Assembly (NCBI GenBank): GCA_040954595.2
Contig: CM082579.2
Location: forward strand, 14,075,834 to 14,139,833
Source: Balanoglossus misakiensis
Lineage: Eukaryota > Animalia > Hemichordata
Direction of reading: 5' to 3'
Length of the DNA stretch: 64,000 nucleotides
A model generated the notes under the pieces. That model was not told the DNA's origin. It ran no database searches and was given only the letters and a program-made list of their open reading frames with translations. Position numbers and translations under genes: made by a program. Shown in pieces: positions 6,681-24,700 of the stretch (positions are counted from its first letter, which is position 1; the number at the start of each line of letters is the position of its first letter).

Positions 6681-6999
6681 GTTTTATCGTTTTGTTGTGC
6701 ATTTGTTTGTATACTATCATAAATTGTTGCCATATAGTGGAGACCATGGTTTTGATAGGTAGAGATTCTGCAAATTGTGAAGACGGTGCTGGGTCTGTAG
6801 GCTGGTACTGTTACTGTATGTGCGCTTGTGGTTTCCTGCTATATAATATGGGCCGTGTTGGTTTGCGTCGTGCGTTTGGCTGTGTTGACTTGTGCTGAAT
6901 GCCCTGTACTGCTAGGGGTTGTCAAACTGGGGGTTGTAAATCGCGATACAGCAAAGCATATATGCAGAAAGAATATCTAAGATAGGGAGAAAATTTGGG

Positions 7000-8772
7000 T
7001 TGGAAGGGACTGCTTTAAAAGATTATGTTAGAGAGGAACAAATTAGACAGAGGGATCTTAGGGCTACTGAGAGAGAGGAGCAGAGAGAAGATAATAGGCG
7101 GCGCGAGGAACATGAGAGAGAGATACTGAAAATGCAAATTCACTTACAAGAATTAAAATTGAAAGGGGAAAATACAGAACAGCAGGTTACTGAAAATAAT
7201 TTGGCCAAAGCGCGTGCTCCGAGACTACAGGGTTTACGTGAGGATGTTGATGATATGGATGCGTACCTTCAACGTTTTCAGCGCTACGCCACTGCTCAGA
7301 AGTGGGAAAAAGATGACTGGGGGTGAATCTCAGTGCATATTGTTACAAGGTAAGGATGTATCCACATACAACCAAATGCCTGCAGCGTCTGCAAATAATT
7401 ATGATGAATTGAAACCAGAGTTATTGAGGGCTTACCAGTTAAGTGAGGAGAGTTTTCATGACAAGTTCCGTTCGTGTATGCCACATTATGATGAAAGTGC
7501 TCAAAAGTTTATGGACCGTATTGGTGACTATTTGGGCAGATGGGTAGAACTGGCTGGTACTCCAAAGACGTACAATGGGCTTACAGATCTGTTACTTCGA
7601 GAGCAGTTTATTGGAGTATGTTCCAGAGACATGGCAATGTTCATTAGAGAGCGACGGCCAGAGAATGTCCAAGAGATGGTATCTACTGCCTCAAAATACT
7701 TAGATGCCCGAGGGTGGTGGAAACTGCCAAGTAATGCCAAGAATAATCCAAGGAGCCAGCCGACAGCAAATACCAAGCCTGCTGTATATCCAAATCAAGT
7801 AAATAAGTTTAATAACAAAACCAATGGTTCCCATGTTTTTAAAGGTACGTGCTTCGTATGTGGTAAAGGTGGTCATATGGCCAAAGATTGTAGAAGTAAG
7901 CCAAAGATGCATAAGACGGCGGTATTGTTAACTGAAGAAGATAGAAACTATCCACCTAAACAAGAATGTACACATTGGGGCAACCGTCGACAGCCCAGGG
8001 GACTAGACACTGGTTATGCATGTATGGTGGTAGCAATGGAAATAGATAAAACAGATGCAACACTGAATAAGGAGTTCGTGTTACCATGTGGTCATAAGCT
8101 CCCAGTGATGAGTGCTGCTTGTAGTGCCCATGGAGTGAAGAAGATGCCGGTAATGAAGGGATTGGTCGATGGTAAGCTGGTTAGCGTTTTGCGTGATAGT
8201 GGGTGTAGTAGCGTGGTAGTTCGAAGAAGTCTGGTGTCAAGTAATCAGCTGACTGGTGAGTACAGGACATGTGTTCTGATAGATGGGACTATTAGAAGAG
8301 TACCTGTAGCCTCTATAAAAGTTGATACCCCTTACTTTGTTGGTGATGTTACTGCACTGTGCATGATGAACCCTGTGTATGATTTAATACTGGGCAACAT
8401 TGATGGTGTATCTGACCCTTCGAATCCTGATACTACATGGCAGGAACCATTGCCGACATGTAGACTGTGTACAACTGTTGGACAGGTACCAGGTTTAGCA
8501 AATGCTGTGGAGACCAGAGCCCAGAAGATAGCCAACCAAAAACCAATCAGAGAGCTTAAAGTACCTAAAGCTGTTGGTGAAGTGGTGATGCCAGGGAAGC
8601 TTCAACAAGCTCAAGAAGAAGACTCCACTCTTGACAAACTACGTGAGAAGGCAATTTTGGGTGACGAGAAAGTGACTAGGAATGGAGGTAGGTTGAAGTT
8701 CATCATGAAAGATGGGATCCTGTACAGAGAGTTCAATTCGCCAATGGTCCAATTTGGTGAAAAGCTGTTACA
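7000..8772 (+). pseudogene. gag-pol: Gypsy gag-protease and start of the integrase region (frameshifted near 7320)
   Basis: DMDAYLQRFQRYA Gag N-terminus, capsid/SCAN-like LLLREQF, zinc knuckle CFVCGKGGHMAKDC, protease LRDSGCS, YDLILGN, and Q..D..L linker. The ORF-track C-terminus after 8772 is read-through into the insert. Confidence 0.88.
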
Positions 8773-8812
8773 CACTGCGGGAAATACTAGAGCTATGTTG
8801 GGCAGTATTCCG
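8773..8812 (+). repeat. Left bipartite terminal inverted repeat
   Basis: CACTGCGG + 18 nt + TGGGCAGTATT (8799-8809) + CCG. Confidence 0.88.
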
Positions 8813-8856
8813 CGAAGCGCGAGCTCCCATGTTCACCATAGCAACGCATTGCCAAG

Positions 8857-9507
8857 ATGGCGGCGCCCGTGTTGATCGATGCCGAGAAAGTTATAAAACG
8901 CAAATTGCGAGAGGCAAAATCTGTGCTTAAACGTAAAAAATGCGTGTCGGACAATCTGTATATACACCCACTCTTTGATGAACTTGAGGATGTGACAACA
9001 AGGGCCATATTTCGAAACGACAAGCTGTCAAAGGACAAGATTCGTTGGCGTGACGTCGCCGTATTTCCCATGTTTCAGCGTGATATGACCTACTGGCAGA
9101 AGACCTTCTACGCTCGGCTGTCAACATCCCCGTCGTTAAGGTCACCATGGCAAAGCAGCTTTACACAACAAATGCCGAGGGAAGTATTTGATGTTTTTCA
9201 TCAGTTTGCTACTCGGACCGGTTTTGGTATCGACGAGAAGACCTCCAGGGCTATCATAACCTTGACCTTCACAAGTTCCTCGAAGCTATTGTATGTGATA
9301 CGGAAAGGTTATTGCTACGAGGGCGCTATCGGTCAGCATACAGAGAATATCCTAGAGAAGAAAGTCCGTGGAAAGAGGGTAGCTGTTATATGCACACCTG
9401 AGAAGCCCTGTGTTGTGAAATATTTTATCAACAGGGAGACTGTTGCTGTTAGATTCAGCTTTGGTGCCTGGAACAAACATGGAATTCCATTACATCCAGA
9501 GAACTGA
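8857..9507 (+). CDS. Transposon-borne 216-aa basic protein of unknown function, convergent with the transposase
   Basis: Uninterrupted ORF in AT-rich DNA with a strong start context GCCAAGATGGCG, 84 bp from the left end. K/R-rich NLS-like N-terminus; AATAAA at ~9636. No kelch or PHD pattern. Confidence 0.72.
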   Translation: MAAPVLIDAEKVIKRKLREAKSVLKRKKCVSDNLYIHPLFDELEDVTTRAIFRNDKLSKDKIRWRDVAVFPMFQRDMTYWQKTFYARLSTSPSLRSPWQSSFTQQMPREVFDVFHQFATRTGFGIDEKTSRAIITLTFTSSSKLLYVIRKGYCYEGAIGQHTENILEKKVRGKRVAVICTPEKPCVVKYFINRETVAVRFSFGAWNKHGIPLHPEN

Positions 9508-10359
9508 ACCCTATTGATTTTTCACACTGATTCAACCCATCTGACGAACATTTTTTTCCTGATCTGTGGCACATGTTGTTCAGTGTAGATGTATCAGTCT
9601 GTCAAGACAGTTCTCTCACAATTGACATATATTCAAATAAAAAAAGGAAAATTAGAAGACTCAAAAATTCATCACTTGTCTTTATTTATCTACATTCAAT
9701 ACAAATGAACAGATAACGTTTACAAAATTTCCTAAACTGTAAAATTCTTTTTTTCCATCATTATTGTAACATAGATTTTTCATTAGTTTCAGAAAAAAAT
9801 GTATGTTACCTACAATCAACATTGATAAGTCAATCAAAACTGCTCATCTAACAGTTAACCAGGATTTCTGGTCTAAATTTAATTAATATTTACAATTAAT
9901 TCCATGACAAAATTTATAAATATCAAGAATTTGATGAGACTTAATTCTTTATTTTTTCACAAATTCATTAAAATTTCGTGCAGGTGCAGAATAAACAACT
10001 CCTCAAGAAAAATGTAAAACTTTTCTATCAAGCTTATGTATGTCATACATTTTAATTTTGCAAAGCACTGCAATCACTATACGATTAAGGGTTTATTCAC
10101 AATACTTAATAGTGGTAAGATAAGTTTCAATTTCCCTGTCCCCATACATGCACACATATACAAAATCCCATAAGAAACATATCATCTCCAGTTCAAAAAG
10201 TGTGAATTCATGTGATTTGTGATCTCCATTTTTATTAAATGCAGCTCTCAACTACACATGAGTCTTTGTAATTCTGTAATGTAATTAATACCATAGTTAT
10301 CCTTTAATTCTAAAGTAGCACACAGTGACACAATCCACTGTTTCAAATTCAATCATTGT

Positions 10360-12600
10360 TCACAGCATAAGTTTCTTGAGTTTATTTGATATTTTACCAG
10401 TGACAGCTGCTTTTTTTATGTCATCCATAATTGGGTCAACACATATTTCACAGGCAGTCATTGTTTCATTTTTCAAATTGCCACACATACAGTAGCCTGC
10501 ATTCTCATAATATCGACTGGGAATGTATTTTTCTTTTTCTTTAAGCTCAAATTGACCTACATTTGCCCTTCTATAGTTGTCAGCTTTTGGACTTTTGTTC
10601 CTCAGCCAAAAAAGCATCACATATTCGTGTCGAAATATGAGGGCCCACCTATTTTGAGGTGTAGAATTTTCACTGAATTCTAGCAGGCGTAGATGCTTTG
10701 CCTCTCTGCCTTCCATTGTGTTTAGGCCTAATCCCAGACTGAATTGCTTATAGATACTAGTGGTGTGTTTTGGGACTACATAACCAATGTGCCACACAGT
10801 ATTATTGACATTCAGAAACAGGGAATGTAGATTAAAGTACCACCGACACTTATGCCTAAGTACAAGCAAATCTCCCTCATTTATGTTGAATCGTGAGAAT
10901 AACAAAGTGATATCTCTAAGCAAGATACCAGTATATGTGTAGAGAGCTAATTGAGCCCGACGCTTTGGACTGTCTGTATCGCTTCTCAATGCTAATACCA
11001 ATCCCATGAAATGCCAAGCAAGTTTGCGAGACTCCTCACCAGTGAAGCGATAAACCACATTAATGTTGGCATTTGACTTGACACTATTTTCATTGAAGTA
11101 TTTTACAATCTTATTATACAACTTTCCAGCTTTTACTTGATATTTTAGGGCAGACAGGAATTTGTACAGATATGACTCGTTAGGTAGATTCTCAATTTTA
11201 ACTCCATTTTAACGACCCTTTTCCGAAGTGTGGGCAACTGCGTCAATCAGTAATCGTTGGAAGTAGTATTGCCATGCATTGTTCTTTAAATGCAATGGCT
11301 CAGCCTTGGCACAATCAATAAATCTACCCAACGGTGGTACAAATTCCTGTCTTGACCTCAGACTGGCTATAAATTGTGTGATTTTGGGTCGCACTGTTTT
11401 GGGCTTTCCAGTTTTAATTTTCTTAGTTGACTTCAACTTTTCAACAGCTTCTGCATCTTTAATTCTTTTCTGATATTTCCATTCATCCCACTTCTGACCT
11501 GGGCCAATTTCTGCTCCAATACAATCAATATCATTTTTGGAAACGTTAGCAAATGAGCTGAAATACTTTGCTGCATTGCTTAGTTCTCCAGACACACTGG
11601 CCAATCCCTTCTGATCAAAGGGTAAAAGTGACACCTGAAAAGTTACATCAAGACTGCCAACTTTATATTTACGTTTCTCAATACACTCAAGGTCTTTTGA
11701 CAATGCAATTGCAAATTCAATCATTATGGGGTCATCCTCTTTTATGTTTGCCCCTAATAGGAGAAAATTGTGGTCTGGGCTAGCAACACGGTGGGTCACA
11801 TTCAAGAAACTAACTAGCCATGCAGTGGCCTGTCCATGTTTGCCAAACGGAGCCCCGTCAGCACCTATACTGATTTGAAATGAGCCCTCCTGTTTACCGA
11901 ACCAGTTAAGAATATCAGGCTGTGTTTCCCCCATATTTAAATATAAACTGGCAATCTTAATAAGCAACTCCTCAGGGTTTCTTTTTAAGCCGACTTGTTT
12001 GCCTTCAGATGATATAATTGGCTCAAGATTTCCAATGTCAAGGTTACTTACATACTGTACAACTTTTGTGTATGGGAGCAGTCTTGGTATTCTACAGCCA
12101 GAATGAATTTCTAATGCTTTCCTAGGATGTTTCAAGTTGGAGAACATCTGAAGTTCACTCTGCCTCAGACAGTTATATTTTCGTTTGGATAGTACTCCGC
12201 CCTCATACATAGTTCTGACACTCCTCACCAAATTGTTCTCACTTTTCTCAAATTTACTGATGTATTTATCAAATACTGATGGCATTACTTTTTTACTGAT
12301 TTGGGGAGAGGTTCTGAAGTATGTTTTCATTTGGTCAGGAGTGGCAGAATTAACAAGAGTATACCACAAACCATCAAGTGCTGCTTTTGGTGGATGTAGT
12401 ACATTCGGTTTATTTATACCTTTGGCTGGGCTTACATCTGTAGTTGCTACATGAATATTTATGGCTGCTGATAAGGTTTCACACCTACGTTCATACTGTT
12501 GACGTCGCGACAGCTTCAAAGATTCACTATTATCTGCACATACTTCAGTGTTCTTGTGGACCCATTTAGAGCGTTTCACATTAACATCATCAACAGGAAT
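10360..12600 (-). pseudogene. RAG1/Transib/Chapaev-like DDE transposase, main exon (one in-frame TAA at 11209-11211)
   Basis: ORFs 11209-12579 and 10360-11121 share a frame and the gap translates openly. Motifs in RAG1 order: LSRRQQYERR, LSKRKY, IGADG (D 11857-59), FDQK (D 11614-16), EPLHLK, MEGREAKH (E 10702-04), C-terminal CxC...CxxC. Phase-0 acceptor TTTCAG at 12601. Confidence 0.85.
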
Positions 12601-12953
12601 CTGAAAGATTAAGTGTGTGATAAATATATACTAATTAGAATATAATCATTATATATAAAATAAAATCTTCTTACAAGTTAATCATTAATTTAAATGTCCT
12701 TGATAAGAAATACACACGTGTAGCCTGTATTTTTCTGACAACTTCTGCAATAAAAATCCTAAAAAATATATATAGTTTGTTGGAAAACCTAGATGTTTTG
12801 CATCAAAGCTGAACCCATTTTGTTATCATTGTTTACACAGGATCATGTGACATGAAGTTCAAAAAGCGAATTTGGGCTAAAATTTGAAGAGGATTTATAC
12901 AAATCTGAGATTTTTAAAATTATGACTAAGTCTATTTATCTGATGTAGCTTAC

Positions 12954-13393
12954 CTTTCTCTTATTATTCTTTGTAGCTAAGATCTCACAAATCTTACTGT
13001 TCTTCTTCTCTAGTCTAGCTGGGTTGAGGATCTTTTTACTAGTCTCCTAGCTGCACTCAACTTATTCAACTTATCCTGAATTATGCTTTCTTCCTCATCT
13101 CTCTTTCTCTTTCTCTGTCTACACCACTCTCCTAAGTTAAACCTGTGTTTAGTCTGTCCTCTCTTTGTTCTAACTACCAATAGGTTGTTGGCCACGCTCC
13201 CAGACAAAGATCTAGTCTTCAATTTCTCCTGATATAGTTGTTGCAAACACTTCTCTTCAGCTACCTGTCCCGCTATCTTTTGGTCCTTTGCCCACTGGCC
13301 TATGTTGAAGTAACTTTTCCCTTTTCTATTCGGCATAACAATAGACAAACTTTTAAGAAGTGCGCTACTCCTGTTGAATAGTTTGCCCCACAT
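12954..13393 (-). pseudogene. N-terminal coding exon of the transposase (frameshifted by a 5-bp duplication)
   Basis: ORF 13010-13426. Removing one TCTAG of the tandem at 13009-13018 extends it (LEKKNSKICEILATKNNKRK) to a phase-0 AG|GTAAG donor at 12954/12953, matching the 12601 acceptor. Start is ATG 13393 or 13336. Confidence 0.7.
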
Positions 13394-14201
13394 GGCTCTA
13401 AATCTATACCTGAAAAGGGTGAACAAGAGAAATATCTTTACAATAATTATCTATCCGAGGGAAGCAAAAACAAAACACCTGCTCATTATACTTCCTCCAG
13501 AAATTGAGGTCAAAGGTGACATAGAAAGAATGTGGGTAACCTTACCATAACAATCTCGCCCGTTCATTTTTTTCTTATTTCGTTTTCACCCTCGAATTTC
13601 CAGCGAATTATATCAAGAATATATTTTAGCACAAACTATTGGTTTCTGATTTTTCAGTTACGGTCTTATTTTCTGTCAATTCTATGAACAATATCACCAT
13701 GTCGCTGAAAATTCGAAGCGCCGCCATTACAATCAATGTAACCCGTGCTGCTGCCAAGGAACACACAGGGTCGTATATTTTCGCTTGGTATGATTTCGTC
13801 ATATTGCTTGTAGCAGCATTTTAAACATGGAATCCTATGTTTACGTATAAAAGACTAAATTCGTATGGTTTTCAAATTGAAAAAAACAATTCTGTGAAGC
13901 TGAATCGTTGTAATTTTTAGTGTTTGTTTATGGTTGCTTAGGACGGCTTCTGCTATAGCAACGGCCAGGGACTGTCAGCGGGTGATCAAAATGTTCAAGT
14001 TATTTGGCTGATACACATAAATAACACAGCAGAATCGCAACTTTATTTCATATTGTCTCTGACATCTTGCTAATTTTACTAAACAAAACTTGGAATAAAG
14101 CAATATTACTCACCGAATTATGCTGTGCATCGACAGCTGTGTTCGATCGCGAACGCCATTACTGTGTCTAATTAAATATTCATGAGCTTCATAGGCTGCC
14201 A

Positions 14202-14242
14202 CGGAAATACTGCCCATAGGTGGCGTCGTTCAAGCTGTAGTG
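14202..14242 (-). repeat. Right bipartite terminal inverted repeat
   Basis: Reverse complement reads CACTACAG + 18 nt + TGGGCAGTATT (14206-14216) + TCCG. Confidence 0.88.
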
Positions 14243-14245
14243 ACA

Positions 14246-15872
14246 GGTGGTGGTTCCCAGAGTGTATCGTAACCAGGTGATGAGACTAGCCCATGAATCA
14301 GTGCTGGGTGGTCACCACGGAACTCACAAGACCACAGACAAGATCCTCAGCAACTTCGTTTGGCCTGGGCTAACATCAGATGTTTCCCGTTACTGTCAGT
14401 CCTGTGATTCATGTCAACGGACACAACCAAAGGGACGGGTGACCAAGGTACCACTTGGAAGTATGCCACTAATAGATATCCCTTTCCTACGTATTGCAGT
14501 AGACCTGGTTGGCCCTATTCATCCATGCACTGAACGCAAGAATAGGTACATACTTACTGTTGTTGATTATGCAACACGCTATCCGGAGGCTGTTGCATTG
14601 ACTAACATTGATACCAAGACTGTTGCAGAGGCGCTCCTGGACATCTACTCAAGAGTGGGGTGTCCACGTGAAATTCTGACAGATCAAGGAACTCAATTTA
14701 CATCAGATGTGATGCGTGAGGTCAGCCGGCTTTTGTCTATAAAGCAGAAGACTACCACCCCATACCACCCAGCATTCAATGGTCTAGTGGAACGGTTCAA
14801 TGGTACATTGAAACTCATGCTCAGGAAGATGTGTGAGGAACGTCCAACATATTGGGATCGTTATCTGAATGCTTTACTATTTGCCTACAGAGAAACGCCT
14901 CAATCGAGCACAGGATTCTCTCCGTTTGAGTTACTTTATGGGAGGAGTGTGCGTGGTCCAATGGCTATCTTGAAAGAACTATGGACTGGAGAGATCAGTG
15001 AACCAGAAACCAAAACGACTTATCAATACATCCTTGATCTTCAAAAGAAATTAAAGAAGGCATGCGATTTAGCAAGACAAGAACTGAAGATATCACAAGG
15101 CAAATACAAGTCCTACTACAATAGAAAGGCCAAATGGAGGAAGTTCAACAAAGGTGACGAGGTGTTATTGCTACTACCTACTGACCATAATAAACTACTT
15201 ATGCACTGGAAGGGTCCTTTTCCAGTGGTGGAGAAAGCGAGCAATATGGATTACAAGATTGACTTTGGTCATAGGGTGAAAACATTCCATGCCAACCTGT
15301 TGAAGAGGTACTATCGAAGAACTGATCAGCTAGATGAAGTATCAGCTGGACTTCTTGAGATTGTGTGTGTATCTGTGATAGATGAGCAGAGTTATGAATC
15401 TTCAGAAGTACAAGAGAACACAGGGGTTAAAGTAAACGATGACTTACTGCGGGTTCCTGCATTCAAGCAGAAAGAATTTGCTGCAGATGTGAATGTATGT
15501 GACAACTTGTCAGACATACAGGAGCAAGTGGTGAGGAGGTTGCTGATCAATTACAAAAATATGTTAACTGATATTCGTGGTAACACCAACCTGGGTTTCC
15601 ATGACATCAAGTTGATGGATCCAACACCAGTATGCAGTAGGCCATACCCCATCCCTCATGCACTCCGTGAAGCAGTGAAAGATGAAGTCAAAACGATGAT
15701 TAAGATGGGAGTAGCTGAACCTTCAGAGAGTCCATATGCTGTTCCACTGGTAATGGTGAAGAAATCTGATGGGTCCAATCGTTGTTGTGTTGACATGAGA
15801 AAGCTCAATCGCATAACAGTGTTTGATGCAGAGCCTACACCAGACCTGAGTGAGCTTTTTGCTTTTTGCTAA
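14246..15872 (+). pseudogene. pol: Gypsy pol: integrase (HHCC, DDE core, GPF motif) followed by the RT N-terminus
   Basis: LAHESVLGGH...CQSCDSCQ, AVDLVGP, LTDQGTQF, NGLVERFN, WKGPF; then PYPIP, SPYAVPLVMVKK, CVDMRKLN. Confidence 0.92.
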
Positions 15873-16255
15873 GTTATCCAAGGATCACTATTTCACTAAA
15901 GTAGATCTCAGCAAAGAATATTGGCAAGTCCCGTTGACTGATAATTCTAAACAATTGACGGCATTTATCACGCATGATGGGCTATACCAATTTATCAAAA
16001 TGCCTTTCGGACTTGTAAATAGTGCTGCGACTTTTAGCAGAATTATGAGAAGATTGTTAAGAGATATGAAGAACGTAGACAACTATATCGATCACATACT
16101 GATCCACACTGCATCATGGGAAGAACATATCAAGACAATTACAGATTTGATGAGCAGACTACGAAAGGCAAAGTTAACAGCTAGACCAACTAAGTGTTAT
16201 GTGGGTTATGAGCAGATCGATTTCCTGGGTCATGTGGTTGGTCATGGTGAACTAG
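15850..16255 (+). pseudogene. pol: Gypsy reverse transcriptase core (frameshifted, catalytic motif mutated, truncated)
   Basis: DLSKEYWQV, MPFGL, YIDH (YIDD expected), FLGHVVG. The frameshift comes from a 7-bp tandem GCTTTTT duplication at 15854-15867. Confidence 0.9.
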
Positions 16256-16299
16256 TCCTGTTTCAAAATGACCTACATTACAGGTCGTATGCACACGTA

Positions 16300-16610
16300 T
16301 TACATGTTCTGATTGGTTTATCCACTTCTCTATGGTCCACTTGCGGCTCGCTGATTGGAGGGACCTTATGTGTTAGGTCTTATTACTATGTATTATTCAC
16401 CAGACCTTGTAGGTTAGGTCTTATTACAATGCATTATTCACTTTACAGCTCCCTGATTGGTTAATGTGTAGGTCTGGTCCTCCAGTGTTCACTGCCTCAT
16501 TATGCAGGACCTTGTAGGTTAGGTCTTATTAATATGTATTTATTCACCATACAGCTCCCTGATTGGTTAACGTGTCAGTCTGGTCCCCCCCAGTGTTCAC
16601 TGCCTCATTG
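16300..16610 (+). repeat. Degenerate ~105-bp tandem repeat at the Gypsy truncation point
   Basis: GACCTTGTAGGTTAGGTCTTATTA...CTCCCTGATTGGTTAA...CAGTGTTCACTGCCTCATT occurs twice, with partial copies upstream. Confidence 0.7.
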
Positions 16611-21703: not shown

Positions 21704-24700
21704 TTCACCCATGTTTTTTTTCAAAAATCGACGAACCCATAATTTTTTTCAAAATCGACGAAATTTTGAGATTTTGCAAAATCAAAAATTTGTCATTTTT
21801 TGATGATTTTCACCATGATTTTTTTCAAAAATCGACCAAATTTTGAGATTTTGCAGTCGAAAATTTGTAATTTTTTGATGATTTTCACCCATGTTTTTTT
21901 TTCAAAAATCGACGAACCCATGATTTTTTTCGAAATCGACGAAATTTTGAGATTTTGCATTCGAAAATTTGTCATTTTTTGATGATTTTCACCCATGATT
22001 TTTTTCAAAAATTGACGAACCCATAATTTTTTTCAAAATCGACGAAATTTTGAGATTTCGCAAAGTTGAAAATTTGACATTTGTTGATGATTTTCATGAG
22101 CTATATAGCCCATGATTTTTTTTTCAAAAATCGACGAACCCATGTTTTTTTTTCAAAAATCGACGATTTTTTGAGATTTCGCAAAGTTGAATATTTGACA
22201 TTTGTTGATGATTTTCATGAGGTATAGCCCATGATTTTTTTTTTCAAAAATCGACGAAATTTTGAGATTTGCAAAGTCGAACATTGGTCATTTTGATGAT
22301 TTTCACCCATTTTTTTTTTCAAAAATCGACGAACCCATGATTTTTTTCCAAAATCGACGAAATTTTGAGATTTTGCAAAGTCGAAAATTTGTCATTTTTT
22401 GATGATTTTCATCCATGTTTTTTTTCACAATTCAACGAACCCATGATTGTTTTCAAAATCGACGAAATTTTGAGATTTTGCAAGAACCCATGATTTTTTT
22501 CAAATTCGACGAAATTTTGAGATTTTGCAAAGTCGAAAATTTGTCATTTTTTGATGATTTTCACCCATGATTTTTTGCAAAAATCGACGAACCCATGATT
22601 TTTTTCCAAAATCGACGAAATTTTGAGATTTTGCAAAGTCGAAAATTTGTCATTTTTTGATGATTTTCATCCATGTTTTTTTTCAAAATTCAACGAACCC
22701 ATGATTTTTTTCAAAATCGACGAAATTTTGAGATTTTGCAAGAACCCATGATTTTTTTCAAAATCTCAAAATTTCGTCGATTTTGAAAAAAATCATGGGT
22801 TCGTCGATTTTTGAAAAAAAACATGGGAGAAAATCTTCAAAAAATGGGAATTTTGTCGATTTTTGAAAAAAAAAATCATGGGTGAAAATCATCAAAAAAT
22901 GACAAATTTTCGACTTTGCAAAATCTCAAAATTTCGTCGATTTTTGAGAAAAATCATGGGTGAAAATCATCAAAAAATGACAAATTTTCGACTTTGCAAA
23001 ATCTCAAAATTTCGTCGATTTTTGAAAAAAAACATGGATGAAAATCATCGAAAAATGACAAATTTTCGACTGCAAAATCTCAAAATTTCGTCGATTTTTG
23101 AGAAAAATCATGGGTGAAAATCATCAAAAAATGACAAATTTTCGACTTTGCAAAATCTCAAAATTTCGTCGATTTTTGAAAAAAAACATGGATGAAAATC
23201 ATCGAAAAATGACAAATTTTCGAAATTTTGAGATTTTGAAAAAAGTATGGGTTCGTCGATTTTTAAAAAAAATCATGGGTGAAAATCATCAAAAAATGAC
23301 AAATTTTCGACTTTGCAAGAACTTCGAGATTTTCGTCGATTTTTGAAAAAAAAAATCGTGGGGGGGGGGGAAATCATCAAAAAATGACAAATTTTCGACT
23401 TTGCAAAATCTCAATATATCGTCGATTTTGGAAAAAAAAAACATGGGTTCGTCGAAAAAAAACATGGGTGAAAATCATCAAAAAATGACATATTTTCGAC
23501 TTTGCAAAATCTCAAAAGTCCGTCGATTTTGAAAAAAAACATGGGTGAAAATCTTCAAAAAATGACAAATTTTCGACTTTGCAAAAACTCAAAATTTCGT
23601 CGATTTTTGAAAAAAAATGGGTGAAAATCATCAAAAATGACAAAGTTTCGACTTTGCAAAATCTCAAAATTTCATCGATTTCTGAAAAAAATCATAGGGG
23701 AAAATCATCAAAAAATGACAAATTTTCGACTGCAAAATCTTAAAATTTCGTCAATATTTGAAAAAAATCATGGGTAAAAATCATCAATAAATGAAAAATT
23801 TTCGACTTTGCAAAATCTCAAAATTTCGTCGATTTTTGAAAAAAATCATGGGTGAAAATCATCAAAAAATGACAAATTTTCGACTTTGCAAAATTTTCAA
23901 AAATTCGTCGATTTTTGAAAAAAAAATGGGTTATAGCTGATGAAAGTCATCAACAAATGACAAATTTTCGACTGCAAAATCTTAAAATTTCGTCGATTTT
24001 TGAAAAAAAACATGGATGAAAATCATCAAAAAATGACAAATTTTCGACTGCAAAATCTCAAAATTTTGTCGATTTTGAAAAAAGTATGGGTTCGTCGATT
24101 TTTAAAAAAAATCATGGGTGAAAATCATCAAAAAATGACAAATTTTCGACTTTGCAAGAACTTCGAGATTTTCGTCGATTTTTGAAAAAAAAAATCGTGT
24201 GGGGGGGGGGGGAAATCATCAAAAAATGACAAATTTTCGACTTTGCAAAATCTCAATATATCGTCGATTTTGGAAAAAAAAAACATGGGTTCGTCGAAAA
24301 AAAACATGGGTGAAAATCATCAAAAAATGACAAATTTTCGACTTTGCAAAATCTCAAAAGTCCGTCGATTTTGAAAAAAAACATGGGTGAAAATCTTCAA
24401 AAAATGACAAATTTTCGACTTTGCAAAAACTCAAAATTTCGTCGATTTTTGAAAAAAAATGGGTGAAAATCATCAAAAATGACAAAGTTTCGACTTTGCA
24501 AAATCTCAAAATTTCATCGATTTCTGAAAAAAATCATAGGGGAAAATCATCAAAAAATGACAAATTTTCGACTGCAAAATCTTAAAATTTCGTCAATATT
24601 TGAAAAAAATCATGGGTAAAAATCATCAATAAATGAAAAATTTTCGACTTTGCAAAATCTCAAAATTTCGTCGATTTTTGAAAAAAATCATGGGTGAAAA

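Follow-up and report, generated by a model that had tools for sequence, protein, structure and literature searches.

How a transposase encoded by one gene came to depend on a second subunit is an open step in the origin of RAG1–RAG2. A 64,000-nucleotide (nt) stretch of the Balanoglossus misakiensis genome (contig CM082579.2, positions 14,075,834 to 14,139,833; here "the window", in whose coordinates all features are given) carries a transposon of ~5.5 kb, at 8773–14242, in which the gene for a DDE transposase faces a second gene that does not encode RAG2. We wondered what kind of element this is and what the second gene might do for it. With fair confidence we take it for a two-gene cut-and-paste transposon, here in a broken copy, with an enzyme predicted to have the RAG1/Transib/CACTA fold and, likely, a dedicated helper gene. 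Measured against published descriptions, the family is probably an undescribed lineage within the CACTA-Mirage-Chapaev-Transib (CMCT) clade, one that brings an accessory gene of its own.

The element interrupts the plus-strand coding region of a host Gypsy long terminal repeat (LTR) retrotransposon (6940–16464; SCAN, zf-CCHC, protease, integrase and reverse transcriptase (RT)-like frames), a region that is broken at other places too. ACA flanks both ends (8770–8772 and 14243–14245). At the left junction CTGTT ACA is followed by CACTGCGG from 8773, and at the right junction CTGTAGTG runs up to 14242 and is followed by ACA GGTG. The Gypsy pol frame 7163–8772 stops at the left end (..GEKLL) and the integrase frame (QVVVPRVY.., Pfam Integrase_H2C2 and rve) picks up at 14244, in phase given a 3-bp duplication; gag and protease domains lie left of the element and integrase lies right of it. 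Both junctions are crossed by contigs of a sample with two public runs, possibly the source of the window. Each end further holds, at an offset of 27 nt, an identical copy of the 11-mer subterminal box TGGGCAGTATT, which occurs twice in the whole 64 kb, i.e. at the element ends alone. The left end (8773–8811, plus strand) thus consists of the CACTGCGG terminus and the box at 8799–8809, and the right end (14204–14242, minus strand) of the CACTACAG terminus and the box at 14206–14216.

Of 7995 candidates scored against the transposase core, 243 were related to it at E up to 0.001. Among the matches listed (120 of the 243) the best was a Ptychodera flava protein with 74% identity, and the other named relatives were cnidarian (34–45% identity). 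Scanning metagenome contigs gave 246 related stretches, the best 80 of which were kept as loci and fell into 46 sequence clusters. No relatives were found in viral contigs, and 30 matches to the end pattern there were dismissed as chance. At two loci we saw a degenerate second copy, element-end or partner-like, upstream of the transposase (L007, 3240; L081, 6826–7167), which suggests internal duplication or nesting in some families.

A 1-bp duplication is another possible parsing of the window's single copy, and the 3-bp length of the target-site duplication (TSD) therefore rests on relatives. Four of the 11 complete metagenome elements have a 3-bp TSD (TAG, AAT, AGC and GAT); none has one of 4 or 5 bp, one has 2 bp only and six have none. 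When flanks were cross-paired as a control, 5 of 110 pairs gave a 3-bp match. Empty sites were available for one further element, L081, a complete 8.5-kb family member with intact open reading frames (ORFs) on an 86-kb contig, which has 15-bp perfect ends with ATA on either side and lies inside a 294-bp array. In the empty units of that array the site holds 7 bases in 284 of 285 counted (124 read TAATACC; overlaps between fetched stretches count a few units twice), and the two L081 flanks together hold 10 bases, which fixes the duplication at 3 bp. A 3-bp TSD hence recurs in five elements besides that of the window, as the sequence-only reading had proposed for the latter, and none of the six observed TSDs (ACA, TAG, AAT, AGC, GAT and ATA) reads TWA. 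The L081 contig (G001:C35) looks animal-like and was binned in a bacterial metagenome-assembled genome labelled Anaerolineae; a bacterial host was rejected, as the contig has the non-coding 294-bp array and retroelement-like frames.

The ends of the relatives carry CACG(C/G)(C/T)GGG-like blocks in which 9–16 bases match; many have another such match more inward, at equal offset on both ends. Neither 12/23 asymmetry nor a nonamer was found in them. The window ends are symmetric and their best nonamer match has 4–5 mismatches, so that the ends, which had been likened to recombination signal sequences, resemble these in CAC only.

The transposase gene lies on the minus strand, is spliced and encodes ~870 aa. 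Its coding sequence comprises an exon at about 13336–12954, a GT-AG intron predicted from splice signals (12601–12953) and a core exon of 746 codons (12600–10360). The core exon holds the catalytic positions D 11859, D 11616, H 11292 and E 10704 (first base of each codon) and a C-terminal CxC..CxxC at 10491–10441. The N-terminal exon (12954–13409, likely start MPNRK at 13336) has a basic stretch and an F(N/P)IG-type motif, and no zinc finger, Chapa or RING was found in it; it has a basic character and few cysteines in the window and in 7 of the 15 loci where it was found. Two lesions mark the window gene, a frameshift near 13014 and an in-frame TAA at 11209–11211. The public contigs have a sense codon at 11211 and, in one run, four extra bases at 13014; at 11541 and 10468 they have 1-bp indels that the window lacks, and both versions are short of being fully intact.

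Across 109 aligned members both aspartates, the histidine of the LH motif and the glutamate are invariant (109/109), and the C-terminal CxC..CxxC is kept in 98. The CxxC between the second D and LH is absent from all 109; H(3-4)H is kept in 55, and its last histidine in 105. Judging from motif order, a YFSSF stretch may replace the lost cysteines. No transposase family of Pfam matched the window protein or 64 relatives at E up to 0.1, sequence searches of the PDB gave no match, and a weak search for longer fused transposases found none.

For structure we used an AlphaFold2 model of the 74% identical relative P0003 (predicted local distance difference test (pLDDT) 92). Foldseek returned 49 matches at E up to 0.001, with RAG1 first and Transib and BbRAG1L included; the best reached 1.5e-11 at 10–13% identity. 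In VIA the model aligned with RAG1 at Z 22.5 (root mean square deviation 3.9 over 465 residues), with Transib at 20.0, BbRAG1L at 19.9, the P element at 11.1 and Hermes at 5.8, and its structural identity to RAG1-type proteins was 9–13%. Neither list contains a CACTA, Chapaev or Mirage structure, so such lists cannot rank these families. The Atlas structure matches tie, with template modelling (TM) scores of 0.72–0.73 for RAG1, 0.72 for a Transposase_21 (CACTA) cluster and 0.73 for Plavaka, and RAG1 clusters top the named matches by Atlas language-model features (0.96, 197 of 256 shared). The transposase is thus predicted to have the RAG1/Transib/CACTA fold, and the specific RAG1/Transib kinship first claimed for it proved too narrow, with the CACTA and Plavaka models fitting equally well.

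Facing it on the plus strand is the partner gene (8857–9507), an intact single-exon ORF of 216 codons whose ATG lies ~85 nt from the element end. The two genes converge tail to tail, and an AT-rich spacer with AATAAA on each strand separates their 3' ends (9508–10359). The partner protein has an isoelectric point of 9.9, and values above 9 were found in 48 of the 62 full-length members; conserved positions form RRL..PW, F and YGxWNxxGxPQH-like motifs, none of their residues being invariant. Its model (pLDDT 92) consists of a hairpin of helices, a basic helix and an alpha/beta domain whose sheet is small, and as modelled the protein is not a kelch propeller. Pfam gave no consistent match, the sequence had no match in the PDB, and Foldseek found none in the PDB and BFVD at E up to 0.001. 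VIA retrieved no convincing solved structure: the best Z of 7.6 covers the hairpin only and the alpha/beta part reaches at most 5.2. A known fold is possible for the alpha/beta domain, which was folded only as part of the whole protein. Argonaute N/PAZ, proposed by Atlas (0.93, low recognition, 142–151 shared features), found no support in the confident model. Homologues of the partner escaped a word-based search; a full phmmer search recovered 75 (E up to 0.001). A prediction of the complex between P0003 and the window partner scored 0.00; it used no alignments, the partner fold was uncertain and the pair is non-cognate, so that the score speaks neither for nor against binding. One homologue, P0186 of Tubulanus polymorphus (XP_074652023.1), has the partner-like domain at residues 459–609, closing a 613-aa gene model after tau/MAP-like repeats, possibly through exon capture or an annotation fusion.

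Partner homologues accompany the transposase at 35 of the 80 loci, every time downstream and on the opposite strand, and at 32 of the 34 loci whose downstream sequence extends for at least 1.5 kb. Other copies lacking the second gene, which had been named as grounds to discard the initial interpretation, thus amount to two informative loci, and the conserved, convergent, non-RAG2 partner stood. In a set of 19 elements, made up of that of the window and 18 loci chosen to represent the partner-bearing clusters, distances between the partner proteins correlate with those between the transposases (Mantel rho 0.68; 0 of 5000 permutations), and both trees agree in their supported clades. Mean identity is 24% for the partner versus 42% for the transposase. 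The ratio of nonsynonymous to synonymous substitution rates of the partner is 0.22–0.39 in 6 of 12 pairs, which are not independent, the other 6 being saturated at synonymous sites; the partner is under purifying selection.

How might such an autonomous-type element move? The transposase would bind each of the two symmetric ends at its short terminal block and its subterminal box, cut the ends, probably through a nick and a hairpin as RAG and Transib do, and insert the element with a 3-bp stagger. By analogy with the RAG1L tail, as described in the accessible text of PMC7204232, the cysteine tail may help end recognition. We lean, if narrowly, towards the small basic partner working in the transposition complex, where it may bind DNA or the transposase for end pairing or target capture. 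Its job would then be analogous to that of RAG2 and done by an unrelated fold.

Several observations weigh against this picture. The fold does not tell RAG1 apart from CACTA or Plavaka, and the hairpin mechanism is borrowed from relatives. The partner has neither a catalytic-looking invariant residue nor a known fold, and two informative loci (L028 and L069) have no detectable partner. Physical linkage by itself yields congruent trees and implies no shared mechanism; tree agreement, being expected from linkage alone, speaks for one old acquisition and retention and not for binding. Finally, 7 of the 11 complete metagenome elements have no 3-bp TSD. Four of these (L007, L011, L017 and L023) each have one flank that recurs in another contig, which makes them look like collapsed assemblies; the failures of L012, L013 and L042 are unexplained.

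The same new lineage could instead carry a partner that acts outside the cutting complex, as a regulator or anti-silencing factor on element chromatin or transcripts. VANC and TnpA-type accessory proteins are of this kind. The intact, separately oriented, single-exon gene close to the element end, the basic protein surface and the faster evolution of the partner are all in line with such a role. Its retention in nearly all informative elements over deep divergence fits an essential role better than host-specific counter-defence, and we regard the regulator as rather unlikely. Another account makes the family a divergent subgroup of a catalogued one (animal EnSpm/CACTA, Mirage or Chapaev) held in Repbase, possibly from Nematostella or corals. 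The available part of PMC12730594 regards CAC..GTG ends with a 3-bp TSD as fitting EnSpm, the Transposase_21 cluster that aligns with our model is mostly cnidarian, and relatives are common in well-studied cnidarian genomes. We nevertheless find this account quite improbable: the 64 members without a transposase Pfam match, the CxxC missing throughout and the TSDs other than TWA all count against it. A literature search, with subscription journals and Repbase Reports outside its coverage, did not find the family described, and the accessible text of 10.1101/2021.09.26.461848 mentions no such group.

A true sister of RAG-like (RAGL) elements or Transib, in which another protein replaced or preceded RAG2L, would account for RAG1 clusters being the best named language-model feature matches and for the ProtoRAG-like convergent layout. 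Such a sister would have to accommodate a structural identity of just 9–13%, the tie with CACTA and Plavaka, a TSD of 3 and not 5 bp, ends without heptamer and nonamer, a lost CxxC and a missing CCGHC tail. Its second D to E would also span 304 aa versus 253 in RAG1 and 206–214 in Transib (the latter from the accessible text of PMC1131882), and we consider it improbable. A two-gene cut-and-paste transposon with its own likely helper remains our preferred interpretation. A bolder version of it would make the family a superfamily-level new branch of the RAG1 fold, present in cnidarians and in a hemichordate, that has dispensed with the zinc site and relies on another subunit of unknown fold; this seems to us doubtful. 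The anatomy set out by the sequence-only reading and its suggestion of an undescribed lineage, which we judge probable, have held, and its RAG1-specific kinship and RSS-like ends have not.

The surroundings of the element showed some peculiarities of their own. The host Gypsy has a gag with a SCAN domain, and the placing of its integrase upstream of the RT-like frames is unusual for Gypsy. In the public contigs depth is very high and alike over the element and its Gypsy flanks (8300–14700), with no alternative junctions, hinting that a Gypsy-element composite was amplified as a unit or that the sample has a single copy of the element. One contig has a loose end of 8 nt at 8771, a signal too weak to be taken for a second insertion. 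From 21700 to 64000 the window consists of ~42 kb of a 77–78-bp AT-rich satellite with higher-order units, which switches strand near 22766 and 27984 among the matches listed; the long "ORFs" of this region are repeat read-throughs.

A widespread family with a like core fold and two-gene layout and an unrelated partner offers a comparison for the origin of RAG, for which intact members such as L065, L074 and L081 are at hand. If the superfamily-level branch were true, it would be an independent natural experiment, a two-subunit RAG-like transposase without RAG2. The family further shows that a zinc motif regarded as a hallmark of its clade is dispensable, and this loss would account for its being missed by motif and Pfam searches. 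The partner, now "hypothetical", would become a named protein family of at least 75 clusters.

How does the family compare with known systems? RAGL/ProtoRAG elements (BbRAG1L, PDB 6b40) likewise have two convergent genes between CAC ends and a RAG1-type core fold with a DDE triad (Z 19.9–22.5 for the P0003 model), and their hosts overlap (hemichordates and cnidarians). In the accessible texts of PMC7204232, PMC10629977 and PMC9435367 they are characterized by a kelch RAG2L and 5-bp duplications. In contrast to the six-bladed kelch RAG2L our family has the 216-aa hairpin and alpha/beta protein; a 5-bp TSD was found in 0 of the 11 metagenome elements and in neither the window element nor L081; and ZnC2 cysteines and a CCGHC tail give way to a missing CxxC and a CxC..CxxC tail, with no RING or Chapa domain. 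Transib (HzTransib, PDB 6pqx), described in the available part of PMC1131882 as having a single gene, 5-bp duplications and heptamer-nonamer ends, has the fold, DDE order and CAC termini in common with the family, which differs in its second gene, 3-bp TSD, lack of CxxC and longer D-to-E insertion and whose ends have neither the CACAATG heptamer nor the A-rich nonamer. Chapaev3 matches it in CAC..GTG ends, 3-bp TSD, LH motif and animal hosts; TWA duplications and C(2)C (accessible text of PMC4079192) and an N-terminal Chapa zinc finger (likewise PMC4411706) are absent, and the second gene is conserved. The ends and TSD of EnSpm/CACTA are matched and the models of EnSpm/CACTA and Plavaka are similar, yet none of 64 members had a Transposase_21 or Plavaka Pfam match. 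The available text of PMC12730594 says that all CMCT lineages have C(2)C and H(3-4)H: the family fits this clade in fold, CA..TG ends and a TSD within 2–5 bp, but C(2)C in the stretch from the second D to E is gone, H(3-4)H is half lost and the partner has no known match. By published descriptions the family thus lacks a defining feature of RAGL, of Transib and of Chapaev3, as the initial reading of its mixed features had anticipated, and appears to fit only the broad CMCT clade, in which it is best treated as a lineage of its own and not as a RAG ancestor.

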